From contig JALHOH010000002.1 in assembly GCA_022843095.1 (NCBI GenBank), positions 120,001-152,000 on the forward strand: DNA of 32,000 nucleotides. Reading direction: 5' to 3'. Positions 3,511 through 32,000 of this stretch are shown here, piece by piece (within the stretch, counting starts at the first letter, position 1; each line of letters opens with the position of its first letter). The notes below the pieces were generated by a model. It did no database searches and was not told the DNA's origin. It was given only the letters and a program-made list of their open reading frames with translations. The stretch comes from Candidatus Saccharimonadota bacterium (GTDB taxonomy: Bacteria > Patescibacteriota > Patescibacteriia > 2-12-FULL-60-25). The translations under genes and the position numbers were made by a program.

Positions 3511-3566
3511 GCCCACCAATGGTCGAGCATACGGCTCGGACTCGCGTTGGTGGGTGTTTTGATAAG
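3511..3566 (+). repeat. Hairpin repeat element, copy H1 (inverted relative to H2/H3), terminator-like
   Basis: CCCACCAA (3512-3519) pairs with TTGGTGGG (3547-3554), with an inner CGAGC/GCTCG stem, followed by TGTTTTGATAAG. The reverse complement matches the 7744-7800 and 15555-15612 elements over most of its length. Confidence 0.65.
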
Positions 3567-7737: not shown

Positions 7738-7743
7738 AAACTG

Positions 7744-7800
7744 GAAATCAAACACCCACCAACGCGAGTCCGAGCCGTGTGCTCGGGGCGTGGTGGGGTT
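7744..7800 (-). repeat. Hairpin repeat element, copy H2; intrinsic-terminator-like for the small ORF at 7810-8088
   Basis: GAAATCAAACACCCACCAACGCGAGTCCGAGCCGTGTGCTCGGGGCGTGGTGGGGTT. Outer stem CCCACCA/TGGTGGG plus CGC/GCG; inner stem CCGAGC/GCTCGG. On the minus strand it is followed by GUGUUUGAUUUCC. By eye it differs from H3 by one substitution and one 1-nt indel. Confidence 0.7.
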
Positions 7801-7809
7801 GCATTCGCG

Positions 7810-8088
7810 CTAGCGAGTGGAAGGGTATGCGACAAATGTTCGGTTGTCGCTGGACTTGATGAGAGGGTATCGCCTCCCATCCGGGGCTTGTTCGAACCCT
7901 GCGAGGTACTCGCCTTTGGCCAGAGAAAGTGCTCCAGCGTCGTTGCAAGCGTCCTCGATCATTCGATGCGTCAGATACCCAGAAGCATCGCGGTGCGCTT
8001 GACGCTTATCTTCTCGCAATTCTGCCAAGGCTCGTGCGTACTCTTCGCTGTTTTCAGGGGACAAAAGAGATTGCTCTTGTTTCGTCAT
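7810..8088 (-). CDS. Small protein, paralog A of a three-member family (92 aa, unknown function)
   Basis: ATG 8088 is preceded by GGAGGAGGG. The block SGYLTHRMIEDACNDAGALSLAKGEYLAGFEQAPDGRRYPLIKSSDNRTFVAY aligns with AGYLVHQAREDSLFATGAINPGDEISGYEQKPDGGSYPIISTQDGATYVLY of 15627-15863 and with DLIDAGEIDTSKGEYLARFDLSGDRLVFEIF of 13667-13900. Confidence 0.7.
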   Translation of the reverse strand: MTKQEQSLLSPENSEEYARALAELREDKRQAHRDASGYLTHRMIEDACNDAGALSLAKGEYLAGFEQAPDGRRYPLIKSSDNRTFVAYPSTR

Positions 8089-8118
8089 TGATCCCTCCTC
8101 CAAAAATGTACAATCGTA

Positions 8119-8147
8119 AATCTAGCGTATTTTGGGGATTTTGTCAA
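8119..8147 (-). promoter_or_regulatory. Consensus promoter TTGACA - 17 nt - TAGATT (cassette copy A)
   Basis: Minus strand reads ccccTTGACAaaatccccaaaatacgcTAGATTtacgattgtacatttttGGAGGAGGG. About 60 bp is shared with 13901-13962 and 15864-15918. Confidence 0.7.
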
Positions 8148-8217
8148 GGGGTGAGGGGCGAAGGAACGCGTTTCGTTTTCTGCGTAGAATCTTCGCGTGT
8201 GATACACTTCCTCATAG

Positions 8218-13666: not shown

Positions 13667-13900
13667 TTACTCTTTTTCTTCCGCTTGTTCCTTCGTGGGG
13701 CGGAAGATCTCGAAAACGAGGCGATCACCAGAGAGATCAAAGCGGGCAAGGTACTCGCCCTTGCTTGTGTCAATCTCTCCTGCGTCGATGAGATCCCTCT
13801 CTGCCATCTGTTTGGCAAAAAGCGGTGCAGCCTCCGTGTTTGCTTGCAACCGTCGCCTCTGCACGCTCTTCAACCACTCCTCATGCTCTGGGTCACTCAT
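13667..13900 (-). CDS. Small protein, paralog B of the three-member family (77 aa)
   Basis: ATG 13900 is preceded by GGAGGAGGGTGAG, with the same promoter and 5'UTR as copies A and C. It shares the DAG..(x)..KGEYLA(R/G)F block with paralog A. Confidence 0.65.
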   Translation of the reverse strand: MSDPEHEEWLKSVQRRRLQANTEAAPLFAKQMAERDLIDAGEIDTSKGEYLARFDLSGDRLVFEIFRPTKEQAEEKE

Positions 13901-13930
13901 CTCACCCTCCTCCAAAAAAGTACAATCGTA

Positions 13931-13959
13931 AATCTAGCGGATTTTGGGGATTTTGTCAA
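13931..13959 (-). promoter_or_regulatory. Consensus promoter TTGACA - 17 nt - TAGATT (cassette copy B)
   Basis: tgtcaa at 13954-13959 and aatcta at 13931-13936 on the plus strand, with a 17-nt spacer. Confidence 0.7.
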
Positions 13960-14047
13960 GGGGGAAGCGAGAAGAGGCGTAATGCGAGGGGGACGGGAAT
14001 CCTGGTTGTTTGCGCCCGGGCTTCTTCGCTGGCATGATGGCGTGCAT
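13960..14047 (+). promoter_or_regulatory. Conserved leader shared by lysS and serS (function unknown)
   Basis: Aligned by eye to 15915-16014, this region has identical blocks of 24, 34 and 11 nt. They are separated by three substitutions and one divergent 11-nt block, and the similarity ends at the start codons. Confidence 0.5.
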
Positions 14048-15554: not shown

Positions 15555-15612
15555 TGAAAATCAAACACCCACCAACGCGAGTCCGAGCCGTGTGCTCGTG
15601 GCGTGGTGGGGT
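15555..15612 (-). repeat. Hairpin repeat element, copy H3; terminator-like for the small ORF at 15627-15863
   Basis: GAAAATCAAACACCCACCAACGCGAGTCCGAGCCGTGTGCTCGTGGCGTGGTGGGGTT. On the minus strand the hairpin is followed by GUGUUUGAUUUUCAAAAAA. Confidence 0.7.
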
Positions 15613-15626
15613 TGCGCCGTCAGGGG

Positions 15627-15863
15627 TTAGCCTGAGGCAGTGGGAGCTTGGTACAGGACATACGTCGCTCCGTCTTGTGTTGAAATGATGGGATAACTGC
15701 CCCCATCAGGTTTCTGTTCGTAGCCAGAGATCTCGTCTCCGGGGTTGATCGCACCTGTTGCAAAGAGACTGTCCTCCCTGGCCTGATGAACGAGATACCC
15801 TGCAGCAGTACGGTCCGCAGCGCGGTAGATGGCTCGGAGACGTGCGTTTTTTTGGACACTCAT
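15627..15863 (-). CDS. Small protein, paralog C of the three-member family (78 aa)
   Basis: ATG 15863 is preceded by GGAGGAGGGTTTCTC. The sequence MSVQKNARLRAIYRAADRTAAGYLVHQAREDSLFATGAINPGDEISGYEQKPDGGSYPIISTQDGATYVLYQAPTASG aligns with paralog A. Confidence 0.7.
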   Translation of the reverse strand: MSVQKNARLRAIYRAADRTAAGYLVHQAREDSLFATGAINPGDEISGYEQKPDGGSYPIISTQDGATYVLYQAPTASG

Positions 15864-15885
15864 GAGAAACCCTCCTCCAAAAAAG

Positions 15886-15914
15886 TACAATCGTAAATCT
15901 ACCGGATTTTGGGG
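15886..15914 (-). promoter_or_regulatory. Consensus promoter TTGACA - 17 nt - TAGATT (cassette copy C)
   Basis: tgtcaa at 15909-15914 and aatcta at 15886-15891 on the plus strand, with a 17-nt spacer. Confidence 0.7.
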
Positions 15915-16014
15915 ATTTTGTCAAGGGGGAAGCGAGAAGAGGTGTAGCGCGAGGGGGACGGGAATCCTGGTTGTTTGCGCCCTTTTTGCGGCGCTGGCAT
16001 GATGACCCACATCT
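15915..16014 (+). promoter_or_regulatory. Conserved leader shared by serS and lysS (function unknown)
   Basis: See 13960-14047. The common sequence is GGGGGAAGCGAGAAGAGG.GTA..GCGAGGGGGACGGGAATCCTGGTTGTTTGCGCCC ... CTGGCATGATG. Confidence 0.5.
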
Positions 16015-25158: not shown

Positions 25159-25455
25159 ATGATGGCCTATAATCTCAACACCTCGACCGTAGACGAGGAG
25201 CTCGAACAAGAAGGATTCAGCATCCAGGATCTTGATGCCAAGCCCTCCAAGGATGACGATGAGGATGAAGAAGAAGTGGTAAAGGAAGGGTTGGAAGATG
25301 AAGAGGTCGATGGTGCGGAAAAGAAGGAAGCGACCGTTGAAGAAGAGGACGAGGAAGACTCCGACGACGATCTAAAACGCCTCGAACGCATGGCCGAAAA
25401 GGTCGGGATCGATGAAGACATGCTGAACCTCTCGGAAGAAGAGGAAAGTATCTAA
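25159..25455 (+). CDS. Small, extremely acidic protein (98 aa, Asp/Glu-rich)
   Basis: Contains runs such as DDDEDEEEVVKEGLEDEEVDG and VEEEDEEDSDDD. A hairpin terminator follows directly. The antisense ORFs are Ser-rich mirror artefacts. Confidence 0.6.
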   Translation: MMAYNLNTSTVDEELEQEGFSIQDLDAKPSKDDDEDEEEVVKEGLEDEEVDGAEKKEATVEEEDEEDSDDDLKRLERMAEKVGIDEDMLNLSEEEESI

Positions 25456-25456
25456 G

Positions 25457-25490
25457 CAAAAAACAACGCCCGTGTGGCGTTGTTTATTTA
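25457..25490. terminator. Bidirectional rho-independent terminator
   Basis: AAACAACGCC cgtgt GGCGTTGTTT (10-bp stem, 25461-25485) is flanked by an A-run on the left and ATTTAT on the right. On the minus strand it is followed by TTTTTGCTT. It overlaps the stop codon of 25484-25789. Confidence 0.75.
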
Positions 25491-25789
25491 TAGCCGATAT
25501 ACCTGAGATCCGATGGATTTCCTCTTCTTAAATCCCGTAAAGAAAAGATCACATTCGAGTAATCCATTCGAATCACGCCCTTCCCAATTTGTATCAGATG
25601 CCCCATACAACGCTCGTGAGCATCGCAGTGGAATTCCATCCGTGCACGGGTTTTAGGAAAGTTGACCAAATCTTCCCTCAGCAATATAAGCAAGGATCGT
25701 TCGGAGAAACGACCCCCTAGACTGTCAATCTTTTCTCGTAACCCGGGCGGTCCAATAATCACCCATAGACCATTCACTCCTCTGCTCAT
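25484..25789 (-). CDS. Hypothetical protein (101 aa) with a His/Cys cluster, immediately downstream of the long ORF-poor transcript
   Basis: There is a strong SD (AGAGAGGAGGTTCGC-ATG). The sequence contains FHCDAHERCMGH. The terminator follows directly. No family recognised. Confidence 0.6.
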   Translation of the reverse strand: MSRGVNGLWVIIGPPGLREKIDSLGGRFSERSLLILLREDLVNFPKTRARMEFHCDAHERCMGHLIQIGKGVIRMDYSNVIFSLRDLRRGNPSDLRYIGYK

Positions 25790-26766
25790 GCGAACCTCCT
25801 CTCTTTAAAGACCAGCGGGGCTGATCTGTACAGGGAGAAGCATGTGAGCGGCACATGCACCGTGGAATACATCCTCCTTACGTCTAGCCCAGCCGGCTTT
25901 TGTGTAGACCTCCTCGTAGGTCGCCTAGCTGCAAACCTGCTTCGCAGGTCGCCCACCGCCTTGAGGTCCCTTTGGGTCGGGAGGGGAAAGCAGATTGCTT
26001 AGCAGAGTCCCTTGGCAGAGTCCCTTTGGAGAGGGGGTCCCTGGGTGCTTCGCGCTGGAGATGGCCTGTAGCCACTACTCGTTGCGATCCCTTTGGCGGA
26101 GGTTATGACTAGAGTGTGAATGCAGCAGATGAAAGAATCATCAGCCCGTAAGGGGTCTCGGTGATCAAAGGCATCGTCGCGACCGAGATGTAGCCCAGCC
26201 ATCAAATAGGGAGACCTGAGTCCTGTACGCGCCAGGTTCGAGATGGCACTCGGCCATTCCCCTACTCGCCAACTTCGGGGAATAGCAGCTCGAACGTGTC
26301 GAGTCATTCGTACAGCACTCTTCGGACGTTTCTTTCCGTCCGCGTGGGGTGCCTGTTGATGAGTGTTGGTGCGGACGGGTGCTACGGCACCCGTCCCCCT
26401 TCCCTCACACAGATCCCTTCCGCCCCAGAGCCAGGTCTTTGGCTTGGGCATAGCATCGAGGCGAACGGTTCGCGCCTCACCAAGGAGAGGACCCCTTAGT
26501 CAGACGCGAACCGTCGAGGGAAAAGGTTCCACGCCGCCGCTCAGCCATCCTGTGGGGATTTCCCCTCCGGAGAAGGCGGGTACAAGACAGAATGCGTGCG
26601 CACGGGGGAGAACGGAAGGATCGCCGCCCGAAAGCGTTGATCCCCTTTTCTTTCGAAAAGGCTCAAATCCCATTACAAAAAGGAGGGTCTGCAACCGGCT
26701 TCCGCCGACAACATCACCTCCTCCCTGCTGTGAAGCGTGAAGAACTTCTCCTTCGCCTCATCAACA
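25790..26766 (-). ncRNA. Candidate large structured non-coding RNA or very long structured leader (unclassified)
   Basis: About 980 nt lie downstream of a consensus promoter with only short, compositionally odd ORFs in all six frames. Many perfect stems are present: a 10-bp stem at 26373-26396, CCUUUUC-GAAA-GAAAAGG at 26644-26661, GGUUCGCG/CGCGAACC, and the long-range pair GGGCUGAU/AUCAGCCC (25817-25824 with 26139-26146). GNRA and UUCG loops and G-U pairs work only on the minus strand. Confidence 0.4.
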
Positions 26767-26772
26767 AGAAGC

Positions 26773-26801
26773 AGAATACGGCAGAATAAAATGTTTGTCA
26801 A
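26773..26801 (-). promoter_or_regulatory. Consensus promoter TTGACA - 17 nt - TATTCT
   Basis: Minus strand reads TTGACAaacattttattctgccgTATTCT, inside an AT-rich patch (26770-26900). Confidence 0.6.
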
Positions 26802-26895
26802 GTCTTTGTTTACATTAGTATTAAAATTATCTAATTCTACTTATTTTTTTATAAAAAACTGTCGAAATATACGGACGTTTATGAACATAGAGGAA

Positions 26896-26931
26896 CGAAA
26901 AAACGCGCCGTCCCCTCCGGGAGCAGCGCGT
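26896..26931 (-). terminator. Rho-independent terminator (minus strand)
   Basis: Minus strand reads ACGCGCtgCTCCCggaGGGGacgGCGCGT followed by TTTTTTCGTT. Confidence 0.6.
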
Positions 26932-27092
26932 CTTTGTTAGTACATAATCAGGAGGTAGCAGAGCCAGTTAAGCGACTGTGCATGCCCCTGAATCATGTGT
27001 TGGATGGTTGCCATACATGATTGGTCGTGCGGGAAGCCCGGGCGACAGTAGGAATAAAGGGGCGATGTTCTCTACCCCATCATGGGGGAGAA
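26896..27092 (-). ncRNA. Candidate small RNA (about 190 nt) bounded by its own promoter and terminator
   Basis: The promoter at 27099-27127 and the terminator at 26896-26931 delimit it. Internal hairpins include AATCATGT/ACATGATT (26991-27022) and CCCC-atcat-GGGG (27075-27087). It contains a CCUCCU anti-SD-like box. No ORF has an SD. Confidence 0.35.
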
Positions 27093-27098
27093 CGGGAG

Positions 27099-27127
27099 AG
27101 GCTATCCCAAAATGACAGGTTTGTCAA
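27099..27127 (-). promoter_or_regulatory. Promoter TTGACA - 17 nt - TAGCCT
   Basis: Minus strand reads cccgTTGACAaacctgtcattttgggaTAGCCT, located just downstream of the terminator of the 27202-28008 gene. Confidence 0.5.
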
Positions 27128-27142
27128 CGGGGAGACCTTATC

Positions 27143-27174
27143 AAATGAAAAAGGAAGGCAGAGTTGCCTTCCTT
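27143..27174 (-). terminator. Rho-independent terminator of the 27202-28008 gene
   Basis: AAGGAAGGCA gagt TGCCTTCCTT is a 10-bp stem. On the minus strand it is followed by TTTTCATTTG. Confidence 0.7.
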
Positions 27175-27201
27175 TGAGGACACGTGGGGAGAACCGAAGC
27201 T

Positions 27202-28008
27202 CTACCCGCGCTCCTCGAGCCTGCAGACGTGGCACGCCATCTTGAGACCGTGGTGGTCTCGGTAGACGTACGCTGACCCCGTGGGATGGCGGTGCGCCCG
27301 CTCGAAACGGGTCGCCATCGAGACCGGCGCCGCGTCGAGCAGCGTCTCCCGGATCTCTTCGTAGAGACCCAGGAGCCAGATCTGCTCGGACTTCGTGAGC
27401 TCCTTCATCTGGCGACCGCTCGCGCGATCGAACCAGAAGAACCGCTCACCGACACGGCCCGGGACGCGCGTCCCGCACCGCGCCCACGCGGCGTCGAGCA
27501 GCGCGCCGCGCTCCTCACCCGCCCGGCCGTAGGCCGTGGGGAGGAGCGACGTCGACTTCGGCTTCTCGTGGAAACGGAGGATCCCCTCCTCGTCCATGTA
27601 AAAGCCGGACACCGGGTACGACTGGAGGAACTTCGTCCCATCCAGGGCGTCCCGGCCGTGGTATCGCCGGTACCACGCGCCGACGTAGGTGTCGGCCGGG
27701 AACGCCTGGCAGAACGCGGCGTACACCACGCCCCAAGCCTTCCCGACCTGCGCGCGCATCCAGCGCCTCACCACATTGCCGCGGAAGGACACGTCCCTTC
27801 GCGCCGGCATCCGCCGCGGGTCCACCTTCCCCTCGAGGATGGTCGTCTTGATGAACGTCTCATCCTCGAGCTTCGAAGTCATGGAGACGACGCGGCATCC
27901 GCGCACCCAGGCCTTCGCCTGGTGACGCTCGCGCCGCCGCTCCTCGCGGCCGAACGCACGACCGTACCGGCTCGTGCGACCCCCCTCCAACGCCTTCTGC
28001 AATCCCAT
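27202..28008 (-). CDS. Orphan protein (268 aa) with C/G-ending codon usage unlike the core genes
   Basis: The long ORF has a protein-like composition rich in W/Y/F (GAWYRRYHGRDALDG, FFWFDRASGRQMKELTKSEQIWLLGLYEEIRE). Start ATG 28008 (MGLQKALEGG) is preferred over the track TTG at 28062, which lies inside the palindromic motif. The antisense ORF 27286-28095 is an Arg/Pro-rich artefact. Confidence 0.6.
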   Translation of the reverse strand: MGLQKALEGGRTSRYGRAFGREERRRERHQAKAWVRGCRVVSMTSKLEDETFIKTTILEGKVDPRRMPARRDVSFRGNVVRRWMRAQVGKAWGVVYAAFCQAFPADTYVGAWYRRYHGRDALDGTKFLQSYPVSGFYMDEEGILRFHEKPKSTSLLPTAYGRAGEERGALLDAAWARCGTRVPGRVGERFFWFDRASGRQMKELTKSEQIWLLGLYEEIRETLLDAAPVSMATRFERAHRHPTGSAYVYRDHHGLKMACHVCRLEERG

Positions 28009-28040
28009 TTTACCCTTCCCTTCTCTGTGGTTTTTTACCG

Positions 28041-28065
28041 TTTGCGACCACTTGCGTCGCAAAAT
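28041..28065 (-). promoter_or_regulatory. ATTTTGCGACGCAAG motif (copy 2) overlapping an 8-7-8 inverted repeat TTTGCGAC-N7-GTCGCAAA
   Basis: The motif is the reverse complement of 28051-28065. The inverted-repeat arms are 28041-28048 and 28056-28063. It lies about 40 nt upstream of ATG 28008. Confidence 0.45.
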
Positions 28066-28154
28066 ATTTTTTCTACTAATCCTGCAGGACGCTGAATGAT
28101 GAATTCAACGCCCATTTGAATTCCCATCTACGTTGCCGATGGGGAGGCGAAGTG

Positions 28155-28385
28155 TTACTTCCAGAGACCCTGCACCATCCTTTTGAACCCCGTGATGACC
28201 AGGGCGAGGATTAATGCTGAGGCGAGTAGATGTTCCGCGATGGGAAACACCTCCTTCCAGGCGGCCTGGAATCCTCCTTCACGGTTGAATGCCGCCAAGA
28301 CGACGGCAATTGCAACTGTGATAATCCCCACTTTTTGATACAGGGCGGTGTTTGAACCCCCCTTTCCCTTCTTCTGTGCTGCCAT
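28155..28385 (-). CDS. Small membrane protein (76 aa, 2 TM segments)
   Basis: GGAGG lies 4 nt before ATG 28385. Sequence: MAAQKKGKGGSNTALYQKVGIITVAIAVVLAAF...LLASALILALVITGF. The longer track ORF (to 28811) overlaps the next gene in another frame and is rejected. Confidence 0.55.
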   Translation of the reverse strand: MAAQKKGKGGSNTALYQKVGIITVAIAVVLAAFNREGGFQAAWKEVFPIAEHLLASALILALVITGFKRMVQGLWK

Positions 28386-28409
28386 GAGACCTCCACACGA
28401 CGTATCACT

Positions 28410-28424
28410 TCTTGCGTCGCAAAA
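28410..28424 (-). promoter_or_regulatory. ATTTTGCGACGCAAG motif, copy 3
   Basis: Exact 15-mer on the minus strand, 25 nt upstream of ATG 28385. Confidence 0.45.
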
Positions 28425-28483
28425 TGTTACACCGTGTGGAAGTGCCGTTCTCGTTGCTGAACGGCAAGCAGTTCCCCTTCTTC

Positions 28484-28759
28484 CTAGGGTGGCGCCGGAG
28501 GCTTCCCCCAGGGCGTCCAGAGAAATCTCCAGAACGCCACGAGCTTCCCCCAGATCGCTCCAAGAAGCCACAGAAGTGGCTTCCAAACCACCCAGACCAG
28601 GATGACCCCGATCAGGACCGTCCCCCACTTGAAGGGGGCTGAGAAGAGATCCCCTGCCTTGCTCGACGCACCGAACACGGCAAGGAGCACGACCACGGTG
28701 ATCCACACCGCGGTCGCCAGAGCGAGGCCATTGAGAATGAGTTCGAGGAATGCCTCCAT
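28484..28759 (-). CDS. Small Trp-rich membrane protein (91 aa, about 3 TM segments)
   Basis: The SD AGGAGGGG precedes ATG 28759. Sequence: LELILNGLALATAVWITVVVLLAVF, WGTVLIGVILVWVVWKPLLWLLGAIWGKLVAFWRFLW. Confidence 0.6.
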   Translation of the reverse strand: MEAFLELILNGLALATAVWITVVVLLAVFGASSKAGDLFSAPFKWGTVLIGVILVWVVWKPLLWLLGAIWGKLVAFWRFLWTPWGKPPAPP

Positions 28760-28793
28760 GGCATCCCCTCCTTTCTGCTGGTTGACCCAGCAA

Positions 28794-28827
28794 CTTTTTA
28801 GAGCGATCCAACGATCCCTCTAAAAAG
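28794..28827. promoter_or_regulatory. Perfect 10-bp inverted repeat with 14-nt spacer in the 5'UTR of the membrane-protein operon
   Basis: CTTTTTAGAG (28794-28803) and CTCTAAAAAG (28818-28827) form the arms. The spacer contains the direct repeat CGATCC x2. It lies between the promoter at 28873-28901 and ATG 28759. Confidence 0.5.
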
Positions 28828-28872
28828 CCGCATGATCAATAAAAACTGGGCGGTTCTGTAAGTGGAAACAGG

Positions 28873-28901
28873 AATATACGAGATTATTCCTTTTTTGTCA
28901 A
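28873..28901 (-). promoter_or_regulatory. Consensus promoter TTGACA - 17 nt - TATATT
   Basis: Minus strand reads ggcTTGACAaaaaaggaataatctcgTATATT, in an AT-rich patch. Confidence 0.6.
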
Positions 28902-29011
28902 GCCTAAGTAGACACTATTTTCAAAAAACAAGAAGTTCAGATTTATTGGCCTTTTTTAAAAATCGTCCCGAGAGACCAAAAAATGGAGTTTTCTTAAACG
29001 TATACCAACGA

Positions 29012-29040
29012 TTGACAATTTTGTTTATTTCTGCTAGAGT
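29012..29040 (+). promoter_or_regulatory. Consensus promoter TTGACA - 17 nt - TAGAGT
   Basis: TTGACA at 29012-29017 and TAGAGT at 29035-29040. It is divergent from the 28873-28901 promoter, about 110 bp away. Confidence 0.6.
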
Positions 29041-29046
29041 GCAGAC

Positions 29047-29584
29047 ACGCTCAAAAACCAGGTGTTCCAGGGCAGACGTCGACGATGGATCCGCATCTTC
29101 GACGCCCGGTCTGGAAATGGCCAGAACACGCGCAGATCTCTGCGTAGGGCTAGATAGGCAATCAGCCTGTGACGGCGCCCTGCAGTGGACGATGCGTATC
29201 GGGAAAGGAGGTCCGCATCGGTGGACCATGGTGAAAATCAAAAAATGGCGACGAGACCACTCGCCGTCCTCTGCACGCCCATGCCGATCGGGATATCCGG
29301 CGGCGCGAGCGTGCGGAAGTATCAAAAAAATGAGGAGGGAGTCGACACGCTCGTCTCCCCCCTTTGCATCTTGTCGCACAGTGCAGGGAGTCCTCTCCCT
29401 GCACAAAGCGATCTAGATCGGCCGAGTCTGACACCGCCGCTTCAGCGGCTTGTCCAAGACTCGGCCGAATGCGCCCACCCCTGCGTCGCGAAGTTCGCGG
29501 CCGGCCACGTGGAGGCCTAACATGTTGGGCGGCGGCACCTGATCCACCCCCGGTAGCAATACGGCTACCGGGGTTCTTTTTTTT
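29047..29584 (+). ncRNA. Candidate structured non-coding RNA (about 540 nt) bounded by a consensus promoter and a strong terminator
   Basis: No ORF here has an SD, and the overlapping track ORFs are Arg/Ser/Pro-rich. Perfect 10-bp stems occur at GTGCAGGGAG-tcct-CTCCCTGCAC (about 29380-29403) and GGCCGAGTCT...AGACTCGGCC (about 29419-29465), the latter enclosing GCCGC-ttca-GCGGC. Several further 5-6-bp stems are present. Confidence 0.45.
29548..29584 (+). terminator. Strong rho-independent terminator
   Basis: CCCCGGTAGC aatacg GCTACCGGGG is followed by TTCTTTTTTTT. The T-run overlaps the stop codon of the convergent TrmB-family gene. Confidence 0.8.
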
Positions 29585-30326
29585 ACTTCATCCGCGCATG
29601 GCACGTCTCCATGTAGTCAAACATGGCGCGCATAGTCTCAACCAGGTCGATGCTTTCGATGATCACTGAAATTTGCTTACCTTTATACGTGGATAACGCG
29701 ACACGATTACCATAAACAAAGACATGTCCAGAAAAACGCATCGTGTCCGGTAAACGAAAAACTTCCACTGTTTGTGTGACAGGTTTTATTTCTTGTTCTT
29801 TTGCGAACAAGAACGTCCTCATTTTTGGAGAAAACTTTCGTATCATATCTCCAAATGACTGAAGTGTGCTCCGTGGAATATACTTCAGCAACTCATCCAA
29901 ATTTCCGAATTCATCGATGTACGGCGTTTTGGAGCGTAATACGTCTTCTTGAATCGCCTTCATCGCCTCTGGACCCTCAAACATCTTTACAACCGGTTTT
30001 TCTCCCCGCTGCACAAGCTTCAGCTCGTGGACGGATGCCTCTACTTCGCGCAACGTCGCCTCCATCTGCTTCACACGTGCATGCACGAACGAAGACAACC
30101 GTTCCGGCGATTCCGCCTGAAACAACTTCTTCTTCCCCTTCTCCACCGAACTCATGAGACCGACCCGCGTAAGCGATTCAATAACGGCGTAGGTGGTCAC
30201 GCGAGAGACCTTCGCCTTCTTTGCTAGCACCTGCACCGTAGACGCCCCAAGCTCAAGCGCAGAAAGATACACCTGCGCTTCGCTTTCCGAAAACCCCATG
30301 GAACGTAATGTTTTGACCCATTGCAT
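29583..30326 (-). CDS. TrmB-family (winged-helix) transcriptional regulator
   Basis: From ATG 30326: MQWVKTLRSMGFSESEAQVYLSALELGASTVQVLAKKAKVSRVTTYAVIESLTRVGLMSSVEKGKKKLF, a typical TrmB N-terminal HTH. The upstream extension of the track ORF (to 30536) overlaps the divergent gene and is not used. Confidence 0.75.
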   Translation of the reverse strand: MQWVKTLRSMGFSESEAQVYLSALELGASTVQVLAKKAKVSRVTTYAVIESLTRVGLMSSVEKGKKKLFQAESPERLSSFVHARVKQMEATLREVEASVHELKLVQRGEKPVVKMFEGPEAMKAIQEDVLRSKTPYIDEFGNLDELLKYIPRSTLQSFGDMIRKFSPKMRTFLFAKEQEIKPVTQTVEVFRLPDTMRFSGHVFVYGNRVALSTYKGKQISVIIESIDLVETMRAMFDYMETCHARMK

Positions 30327-30913: not shown

Positions 30914-32000
30914 TCATTGGCACACCGCGCATTCTTCCGTCGCGATATCTCGCTTTTGCGTCTCCTGCGTGATCTTTGTTGCCTCAATAGGCGCGCTGGA
31001 ACGGAGGTAGTAAAGCGACTTCATTCCCAGTTTCCATGCAAGCAGGTGCACATCATGCAGATATTTCCCCGAGATCGGCGTCTGGAAGAACAGGTTGATG
31101 GACTGCGCCTGATCGATCCACGGCTGGCGATCCGCCGCCTGCTGCACGATCTCGCGCATATTCATCTCATACGCCGTTCGGAACACTTTGCGCTCTTCCT
31201 CGGACAGCCCCGGCACATTGATGACGCTCCCCTTGTCCGCGATGATCTGCTTCCACACCTCCGGCGCATTCATCCCTTTCTTCGCAAGCAGTTGATCGAG
31301 GTACTTGTTTTTGACAAGGAAACTCCCCGACAACGTCTTCTGCAAATACGCGTTCCCCGAGATGGGCTCGACGCACGGTGTCGCCTCCCCACAGATAAAC
31401 GCCGTAGACGCGGTTGGCTGGACACTCGTCACATACGTGTTGCGACGCGTGCCTCCATCCAACGGAAGTCCGCGTTCCTTCCCCAGCCGTTCGGACGCCT
31501 TCCGCGCATACGTCCCGATCCGTTCAAAGATCTGCTTGTTGATGAGCCGTGCCTGCAAACTTTCAAACGGCACCATCTTGGACATGAGATAGCCGTGGTA
31601 TCCCATCACCCCAAGCCCGATGGAACGTTCGTGCTTCACGGAATTGATGGACTTTCTATATTCCACCCCATCCGCCATCTCGCAAAACGTGTCCAAGTTG
31701 TTATCCAACGCCTTCACACACAAATAGGCGATCTCCTCGACCTCATCTTTCCATTCCTCAAACGTTTCGAGGTTCAAGTTTCCCAGACAGCACACCGCCG
31801 TACGATCGTTCGTCGTGGGCAACACGATTTCGGTGCAAAGGTTGCTTTGACGCACAAACAGCCCCTTCTCCTGATGGTGCGCCGGCACCGCCTTGTTCAC
31901 GGTATCGATAAACAAGAGATACGGCTCCCCGGTTTCTGCACGGATCGTCAGGATCTTGCGCCAGATGTCGAGCGCCGGAAGTTCCTTTGTGACGGTCTGA
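30914..32000 (-). CDS. Ribonucleoside-diphosphate reductase alpha subunit, class I (NrdA/NrdE type), 5' part outside the window
   Basis: SNLCTEIVLPT (catalytic Cys loop), GLGVMGYHG, SLYYLRS (class I Tyr-Tyr pair) and the C-terminal CAVCQ redox pair. The frame stays open to base 32000 (..ETGEPYLLFIDTVN..). Confidence 0.88.
   Translation of the reverse strand, partial: QTVTKELPALDIWRKILTIRAETGEPYLLFIDTVNKAVPAHHQEKGLFVRQSNLCTEIVLPTTNDRTAVCCLGNLNLETFEEWKDEVEEIAYLCVKALDNNLDTFCEMADGVEYRKSINSVKHERSIGLGVMGYHGYLMSKMVPFESLQARLINKQIFERIGTYARKASERLGKERGLPLDGGTRRNTYVTSVQPTASTAFICGEATPCVEPISGNAYLQKTLSGSFLVKNKYLDQLLAKKGMNAPEVWKQIIADKGSVINVPGLSEEERKVFRTAYEMNMREIVQQAADRQPWIDQAQSINLFFQTPISGKYLHDVHLLAWKLGMKSLYYLRSSAPIEATKITQETQKRDIATEECAVCQ

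Follow-up and report, generated by a model that had tools for sequence, protein, structure and literature searches.

A candidate accessory RNA gene with a compact predicted 5′ domain on a strain-specific cassette of a Patescibacteria genome

Between positions 25790 and 26766 of the window analysed here, a 32,000-nucleotide stretch of a Candidatus Saccharimonadota genome, a sequence-only reading proposed a large structured RNA of about 980 nt, transcribed from the minus strand, packed with helices and devoid of convincing open reading frames. The locus raises the question of whether this DNA specifies an RNA gene at all, how much of the predicted transcript is structured and which known RNA, if any, it resembles. 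The neighbouring genes, encoding RmuC and a DUF218 protein, together with 21 related loci, place the window in a clade of Patescibacteria (CPR); RmuC identity to the 21 loci is at most 68%. Gene order in these relatives runs RNR, trmB, a variable stretch of 0.46–2.2 kb, an acidic-protein gene and rmuC. The corresponding trmB-rmuC slot of the window measures 4.6 kb, giving a range of 0.46 to 4.6 kb across the set, and none of the genes of the island that occupies it in the window was present in the relatives' loci.

The proposed unit has well-marked ends. Its promoter, a sigma-70-type TTGACA-N17-TATTCT element at 26773–26801 on the minus strand, had been noticed by eye and was recovered by a promoter scan. 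Seven copies of the pattern TTGACA-N17-TANNNT were counted in the 32-kb window, where 0.06 are expected and no shuffle reached this number, and each of them stands at the head of a transcription unit. An AT-rich tract extends upstream of the element to about 26870. At the distal end lies the intrinsic terminator of the unit, previously put near 25457–25490 and here located at 25485–25461 (minus strand). This terminator is also present in a sister strain, represented by contig L001, and is common to the unit and the convergent acidic-protein gene (25159–25455, plus strand). The terminator of a preceding small unit, identified from sequence and fold at 26893–26925 (minus strand) and likewise conserved in L001, marks the left border of the strain-specific cassette and shields it from transcription arriving from upstream. 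Promoter, own terminator and the terminator of the preceding unit together delimit an insulated unit of about 1.3 kb with a promoter at its head and a terminator at its end, from 26766 to 25461 on the minus strand.

Coding tests are consistent with the earlier view that the region lacks a convincing ORF, with codon usage, 3-nt periodicity and stop counts all in agreement. Log-odds of codon usage, computed with 14 long genes of the window as the training set, are below zero in all six frames across 25460–27170; per codon, the 150-aa ORF scores −0.27 and an antisense 125-aa ORF −0.33, compared with +0.13 to +0.35 for real genes. Periodicity of 3 nt is absent from the region (P=0.19) and significant at P<0.001 in every real gene of the comparison, among them the neighbouring orphan genes, namely p268 and two small membrane proteins. 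The best minus-strand frame carries four stops across 25790–26770, two of them within 26757–25789, a number that is not unusual given a mean minimum of 6.1 in shuffled sequences and a probability of 0.06 for a minimum of three or fewer. The two stops within 26757–25789 are one TGA and one TAA, and a recoded gene was rejected because a single reassignment leaves the frame closed. A six-frame query built by concatenating stop-free segments of at least 30 aa (pseudo-blastx) found no protein similarity at E≤1 among 5.8 billion protein clusters, and the six-frame translation returned nothing relevant from Pfam at E≤1. The sequence-only reading had itself raised the prospect of a decayed pseudogene; the relatives hold no intact ORF, and neither periodicity nor protein similarity was found. 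The non-coding, promoter-driven, minus-strand interpretation is therefore upheld by promoter, terminator and coding tests, for a transcript that is itself predicted.

The same tests bear on the 101-codon ORF at 25484–25789 (minus strand), which had been taken for a gene downstream of the RNA and is better regarded as doubtful. It has no coding signature (−0.07 per codon; periodicity P=0.54). It matches only itself among 5.8 billion protein clusters and nothing in Pfam, and an exhaustive HMMER search of 1.84 billion representative proteins added only two repeat artefacts, P0003 and P0004. Both are tandem-repeat junk with scores inflated by the repeats, and the idea that the ORF is a P-loop fragment ("IIGPPG") was discarded. 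A single-sequence AlphaFold model of the 101-aa product is poor (pLDDT 51). The ORF does possess a Shine-Dalgarno sequence, AGAGAGGAGG, 7 nt before its AUG; in both MFE and centroid structures this element pairs with CUUCUCCCU to form a hairpin at 25796–25840 (minus strand). The last seven codons and the stop lie in or beyond a GTATA repeat at the cassette junction, described below. Judged by these sequence properties, the entire unit, the 101-codon ORF probably included, is non-coding.

Folding against shuffled sequences divides the transcript in two. The claim of a helix-packed region of about 1 kb is borne out for the 5′ part (z=−6.5) and fails for 26353–25790 (z=−1.7, 6 of 100 shuffles being equally good); correspondingly, the large structured RNA of about 980 nt contracts to a 5′ domain of about 415 nt, with ordinary folding in the remainder. 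The domain, about 413 nt at 26354–26766 (minus strand), extends from the predicted transcription start to the distal partner of a helix here called P1. Folded as a 426-nt segment (26770–26345), the minus strand reaches an MFE of −207 kcal/mol with z=−5.6 to −6.5, a stability equalled by none of 100 shuffles, versus −173 kcal/mol and z=−3.0 for the plus strand, so that the minus strand is the more stable by 34 kcal/mol. MFE and centroid structures of the domain almost coincide, and 22 of its 147 pairs (15%) are G-U. For the full 981 nt, z is −4.05 on the minus strand versus −2.31 on the plus strand. Sliding windows of 200 nt give z of −3 to −4.7 in 26200–26800 and near 0 in 25700–26200, on a background of −0.44 (sd 1.5). 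Ensemble diversity is unremarkable, at the 15th percentile of the shuffles.

Helix P1, a perfect 10-bp pairing of 26757–26766 with 26354–26363, begins at the predicted transcription start and closes the domain. When the domain is folded alone, P1 forms with a probability of 0.97; this value falls to 0.30 once the whole 977 nt are included and to about 0 for the full transcript, and the modelled helix is thus plausible co-transcriptionally yet not robust. P1 is nonetheless a better long-range helix than the 8-bp closing pair suggested previously (near 25818–25825 and 26140–26147), which occurs at about chance level in 1 kb.

Within P1, the hairpins named by the sequence-only reading at 26373–26396, 26644–26661, about 26625–26636 (UUCG) and 26465–26514 were confirmed, all on the minus strand. 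Following the predicted transcript from its 5′ end, a long hairpin at 26669–26734 (minus strand) pairs GGGAGGAGG with CCCUCCUUUUU in MFE and centroid structures and encloses both a GGAA-capped stem (26694–26709), located by the tetraloop scan, and a 13-codon mini-ORF (26715–26674). A perfect 7-bp hairpin with a GAAA loop lies at 26644–26661 and is followed by the C(UUCG)G hairpin at about 26625–26636, both supported by fold and tetraloop scan. The 21-bp hairpin at 26465–26514, found also as inverted repeat I1 in the repeat search, contains three mismatches at the DNA level, two of which turn into G-U pairs in the minus-strand RNA and not on the plus strand. The last, at 26373–26396, is a perfect 10-bp hairpin, GGACGGGUGC-CGUA-GCACCCGUCC, seen in both repeat search and fold. 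GNRA and UUCG tetraloops had been said to exist in the minus-strand reading alone; over the whole region there are four GNRA/UNCG hairpins on each strand, and the asymmetry is confined to the 5′ domain, where the minus strand has four versus 0.7 expected (P=0.002) and the plus strand two.

Strongly negative folding z-scores are found throughout the island (26200–29600), the coding p268 gene included, which lowers confidence in the 5′ domain; its folding signal may be partly compositional. The G1/C3 codon periodicity of GC-rich genes may contribute to the island-wide values; the 5′ domain lacks such periodicity.

The 3′ tail (25790–26353, minus strand) is structured at chance level, as given above for its 564 nt, and carries short repeats. 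The element CCAAAGGGA occurs three times, at 26087–26096, 26020–26029 and 25966–25975, and a 13-nt tandem duplication occupies 25998–26023. AAGGGA is present in five copies versus 0.44 expected; total GGA, at 27 versus 24 expected, is not enriched. Sponge RNAs of the CsrB/RsmZ type expose many GGA motifs in hairpin loops. A CsrA-sponge interpretation of the repeated CCAAAGGGA was rejected, since pairing is predicted for most of the GGA cores, with mean unpaired probabilities of 0.02–0.34. A search of viral contigs for the triple motif returned only unrelated tandem repeats.

Comparison with the sister strain shows the unit to be a presence/absence polymorphism between close strains. The Logan contig L001 (SRR31730576) carries an RmuC identical to that of the window and matches window positions 27453–26892 and 25489–23918 at about 98% identity. 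In place of the 1402 bases of the window between them (25490–26891, minus strand), comprising the AT-rich promoter region, the RNA and the 101-codon ORF, it has 42 unrelated bases, and this unique filler indicates an indel and not an assembly collapse. Absence from a 98%-identical strain marks the unit as dispensable accessory DNA and not as a conserved RNA class. A possible 5-bp GTATA stands at both junctions, reading CGTCC GTATA|TTTCG on the left and CTCAG|GTATA TCGG on the right, and the empty site in L001 reads GTCCCG GTATA CCGG. The 20 or so bases adjoining the junctions also differ from L001, a pattern that looks less like clean transposition than like replacement of the cassette through recombination within the flanking terminators. 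Transposon ends were sought and set aside, no terminal inverted repeats being found, and integron attC sites were dismissed because the flanking terminators, compared by eye, do not fit the R″/R′ consensus.

Searches for relatives of the unit were uniformly negative. The Rfam comparison called for by the sequence-only reading gave no family match at any threshold: Rfam 15 returned no matches at gathering thresholds over the whole window, and with lax filters (25300–27300, 26330–26780 and 25780–26360) only chance-level scores of 11–20 bits, versus cut-offs of 35–100 bits. Among other curated Rfam families (raiA, RNase P, tmRNA, 6S, SRP, riboswitches and ribozymes), the unit fits none. The search for homologues, also advised at the outset, was run on related loci and on phage, plasmid, viral and metagenome sets and found none. 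Specifically, nhmmer and blastn detected no similarity to the region in the 21 related CPR loci, and neither the cassette nor the island has nucleotide similarity to phage (50,697 records) or plasmid collections. An exact 20-mer scan of metagenome contigs, based on the 26373–26396 hairpin, retrieved only unrelated terminator hairpins. Exact patterns from the cassette motifs had no match in IMG/VR viral contigs and degenerate patterns only unrelated sequences, and exact-protein look-ups of the neighbouring genes yielded nothing beyond L001. A covariance model of the relatives' non-coding block, R1, found no match in the window. The unit is, on current sequence comparisons, new in the sense of matching nothing known, a novelty that rests on one sequence.

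Judged by covariance models, the unit is none of GOLLD, ROOL, OLE, HEARO or the introns, which the sequence-only reading had entertained, and the comparison with these systems is one of likeness. ROOL and GOLLD are large, ornate RNAs of prophages and phages (PMC12286853, PMC5737381), located on prophage or phage DNA and often beside tRNA islands (PMC12286853). The unit shares with them a predicted multi-hairpin RNA of large size (over 400 nt) and unassigned function, carried on accessory, horizontally moving DNA and lacking an associated protein. It differs in having no covariance-model match, no tRNA in 32 kb and no phage genes nearby, and, whereas those classes are defined by covariation across hundreds of sequences, it shows no conservation. 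By analogy, the unit would in its behaviour most resemble mobile-DNA RNAs of the ROOL/GOLLD type, yet covariance models, genomic setting and conservation all separate it from them. OLE is a core RNA of extremophilic Firmicutes, conserved and expressed at high levels, and has protein partners dedicated to it (PMC3413148). The unit is similar in size range and hairpin-rich appearance, but it has no model match, is strain-specific, resides in a CPR genome and is accompanied by no partner genes.

Next to HEARO or omega RNAs lies a gene for IscB/TnpB (RuvC, OrfB_Zn_ribbon) or for TnpA, intact or as a remnant. The unit recalls the omega RNAs of IscB-TnpB (IS200/IS605) elements and HEARO in being a structured RNA in a small inserted element with a possible GTATA at its junctions. 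Here, however, there is no model match and no IscB, TnpB or TnpA remnant in any frame of the unit, no subterminal hairpin ends were identified, and the flanks differ from the empty site beyond what a clean insertion leaves. Group II introns of class C insert after intrinsic terminators, and the unit, a structured RNA of several hundred nt, does lie directly downstream of a terminator hairpin. It differs from such introns in showing no match to domain V/VI or D1-D4 models even at E≤10, in having no reverse-transcriptase ORF or remnant in any frame and in possessing its own promoter. A further comparison is with the lineage-specific non-coding units of 0.5–0.8 kb between trmB and rmuC in relatives (L004–L009 and L018), which share the promoter type, the lack of an ORF and the variable locus. 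These units are convergent with trmB, though; their positional match in the window is 29012–29590 (plus strand) and not the cassette, to which they have no sequence or covariance-model similarity.

The account that we tentatively prefer, held with reserve, is an accessory non-coding RNA gene that is exchanged horizontally and whose functional part is a compact 5′ domain, followed by an unconstrained tail. The unit would then be the final cassette in an island specific to the lineage, which occupies the variable trmB-rmuC slot of a Patescibacteria (CPR) genome; the cassette would have been gained, or lost from the sister strain, through recombination in the conserved flanking terminators, with the possible GTATA marking the site. 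Its RNA would fold co-transcriptionally into the closed, multi-hairpin 5′ domain, which may act as a stand-alone structured RNA, like the large accessory RNAs on mobile DNA and not like a protein leader; the 3′ 560 nt and the ORF would form a tail under little constraint that extends as far as the nearest terminator. Against this stand the single sequence, which by its nature offers no covariation or evidence of selection on structure, and the sister strain, which does without the unit and so shows it to be dispensable. P1 is unstable in the full-length ensemble, whose diversity is unremarkable, and the negative z-scores that span the island, coding p268 included, mean that the signal may be partly compositional. 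The perfect pairing of several stems would be expected of young palindromes, or of palindromes at the DNA level, no less than of old RNA helices, and the short duplications of the 3′ half are typical of unconstrained DNA. Much of the same evidence favours non-functional foreign or relic DNA in a recombination hot spot, with a promoter-like site that is there by chance or acquired and with folding as a by-product of composition (purine/pyrimidine tracts, local palindromes). Such inert DNA would be orphan at every level, absent from the sister strain, strongly negative in z together with the whole island and its coding sequence, unstructured and marked by slippage-type repeats in its 3′ half and without a robust P1, all of which is observed, and we consider it nearly as likely as the accessory RNA gene. 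It accounts poorly for a promoter motif that is otherwise found only at unit starts and is preceded by an AT-rich tract, for terminators that bracket the unit neatly, for folding that is more stable on the transcribed strand by 34 kcal/mol and for the enrichment of tetraloops. Inert DNA amounting to 1.4 kb is, moreover, uncommon in CPR genomes, which are compact.

Three other explanations were weighed. The single promoter and single terminator enclosing both RNA and ORF, and the good Shine-Dalgarno AGAGAGGAGG paired with the upstream CUUCUCCCU, would fit a long structured 5′ leader controlling a young orphan 101-aa protein, the ribosome-binding sequence being sequestered in the 25796–25840 hairpin and released on some signal. 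This is unlikely: the ORF, unlike the neighbouring orphan genes, has neither codon-usage nor period-3 signal, no homologue of it was found, its structure model is of low confidence, and it crosses the cassette junction into flanking DNA. ORFs of 100–150 codons also occur in the clearly non-coding part, and to our knowledge a leader of 980 nt has little precedent. We disfavour more strongly still, as quite improbable, a decayed pseudogene of a protein-coding or transposase/TnpB-type mobile-element gene, for which one might cite the minus-strand frame with only four stops across 25790–26770 and the possible 5-bp GTATA at both junctions. Four stops are not unusual beside the shuffles; there is no period-3 signal, no protein similarity at E≤1 in any frame, no Pfam domain remnant and no terminal inverted repeat. 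Least probable of all is an assembly chimera in the source genome. Although the segment occurs in only one public assembly, its GC content is near that of the host, its promoter type is the host's own, the junctions fall in the spacer between two terminators, and the sister strain shows a unique filler of 42 bases of its own instead of a simple join.

The orphan gene p268 belongs to an island in which two further non-coding units lie, one of about 200 nt at 26893–27092 and one of about 540 nt at 29045–29590 (plus strand; z=−9.8), the latter with positional counterparts in six related genomes. The locus thus holds three promoter-driven non-coding units and may be a more promising lead than the cassette. 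A bolder proposal, which we regard as doubtful, is that 26354–26766 is the first example of a novel class of structured RNAs that stand alone and travel on exchangeable CPR/Patescibacteria cassettes, part of an "RNA island" with the units at 26893–27092 and 29045–29590, and that the trmB-rmuC slot is a nursery of fast-evolving accessory RNA genes. At present, the finding is of value mainly because it draws attention to a variable locus at which non-coding units with promoters recur in this clade. Should the 5′ domain work as an RNA, it would provide a small candidate (about 415 nt), bounded by promoter and helix, for probing or cryo-EM. It would also mean that strains of CPR bacteria, tiny and dependent on hosts, exchange genes for large structured RNAs as accessory cargo, which, if true, would resemble the carriage of ROOL and GOLLD by phages.

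A second non-coding unit, in which no coding signal was seen, lies at 29012-29590 on the plus strand of the window. It is headed by a TTGACA-N17-TAGAGT promoter (29012-29040), from which a predicted ~540 nt runs to the terminator common to trmB. Its predicted fold (MFE -264 kcal/mol, z=-9.8, equaled by 0 of 100 shuffles) is far stronger than that of the main promoter-to-terminator unit on the minus strand, and searches of Pfam and Rfam with the sequence gave no match. Directly upstream of the main unit is a smaller one of the same kind (26893-27127, minus strand), in which a TTGACA-N17-TAGCCT promoter (27127-27099) and a terminator (26925-26893) delimit a predicted transcript of ~200 nt that folds with z=-4.0 and contains no plausible ORF. 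This small unit is 98% conserved, with 5 substitutions, in the contig of a closely related sister strain.

Three protein genes, all on the minus strand and all with a clear coding signature, belong to the island, the lineage-specific DNA between trmB and rmuC. One encodes a 268-aa protein, p268 (27202-28008), and the other two encode small predicted membrane proteins (28155-28385 and 28484-28759); none has a match in Pfam. A search of 5.8 billion protein clusters found no homologue of p268, the gene for which has a GC content of 62-69% versus about 55% for the host. The p268 mRNA, too, is predicted to fold, with z of -3 to -5.7.

The window also holds two families of repeated intergenic sequence. 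Members of one (80-136 nt; 8072-8151, 13884-14039 and 15849-16004) carry the promoter TTGACAAAATCCCCAAAAT...TAGATT, and members of the other, which form hairpins (48-61 nt; 3512-3559, 7742-7802 and 15555-15615), occur in both orientations. In addition, the 5' end of the main unit's predicted transcript (26754-26771) is complementary at 16 of 18 positions to 31532-31549, a segment inside the ribonucleotide-reductase mRNA, which is likewise encoded on the minus strand. The window contains many matches of comparable length (26 inverted pairs were listed), and this complementarity is therefore probably due to chance.

The 20-mer ACGGGTGCCGTAGCACCCGT, drawn from the perfect 10-bp hairpin of the main unit (26373-26396), recurs in metagenome contigs as a terminator hairpin in antisense. 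It is followed in five of them (L024, L026, L027, L031 and L032) by a common ribosome-binding region, GGACCAAAGGGAGGA, the combined stretch being a conserved intergenic sequence of another lineage. Apart from the hairpin, it has no relation to the main unit.

Within one CPR sub-clade, a non-coding block of ~560 nt is conserved at 77-79% identity, with near-invariant cores (L006 3860-4400; L008 840-1375; L009 3830-4375; L007 1-205). Its predicted helices show some compensatory changes, and it is absent from Rfam. A covariance model built from the block, R1, found no copy in the window or the other relatives. Each of six related CPR genomes has a TTGACA-N17-TAnnnT promoter 0.5-0.8 kb past the end of trmB, on the minus strand of the locus (L004 ~4930, L005 ~5526, L006 ~4371, L008 ~1355, L009 ~4355 and L018 ~5520), aimed back toward trmB over a stretch without an ORF. 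This architecture is the same as that of 29012-29590 in the window; conservation extends to the position but not to the sequence.
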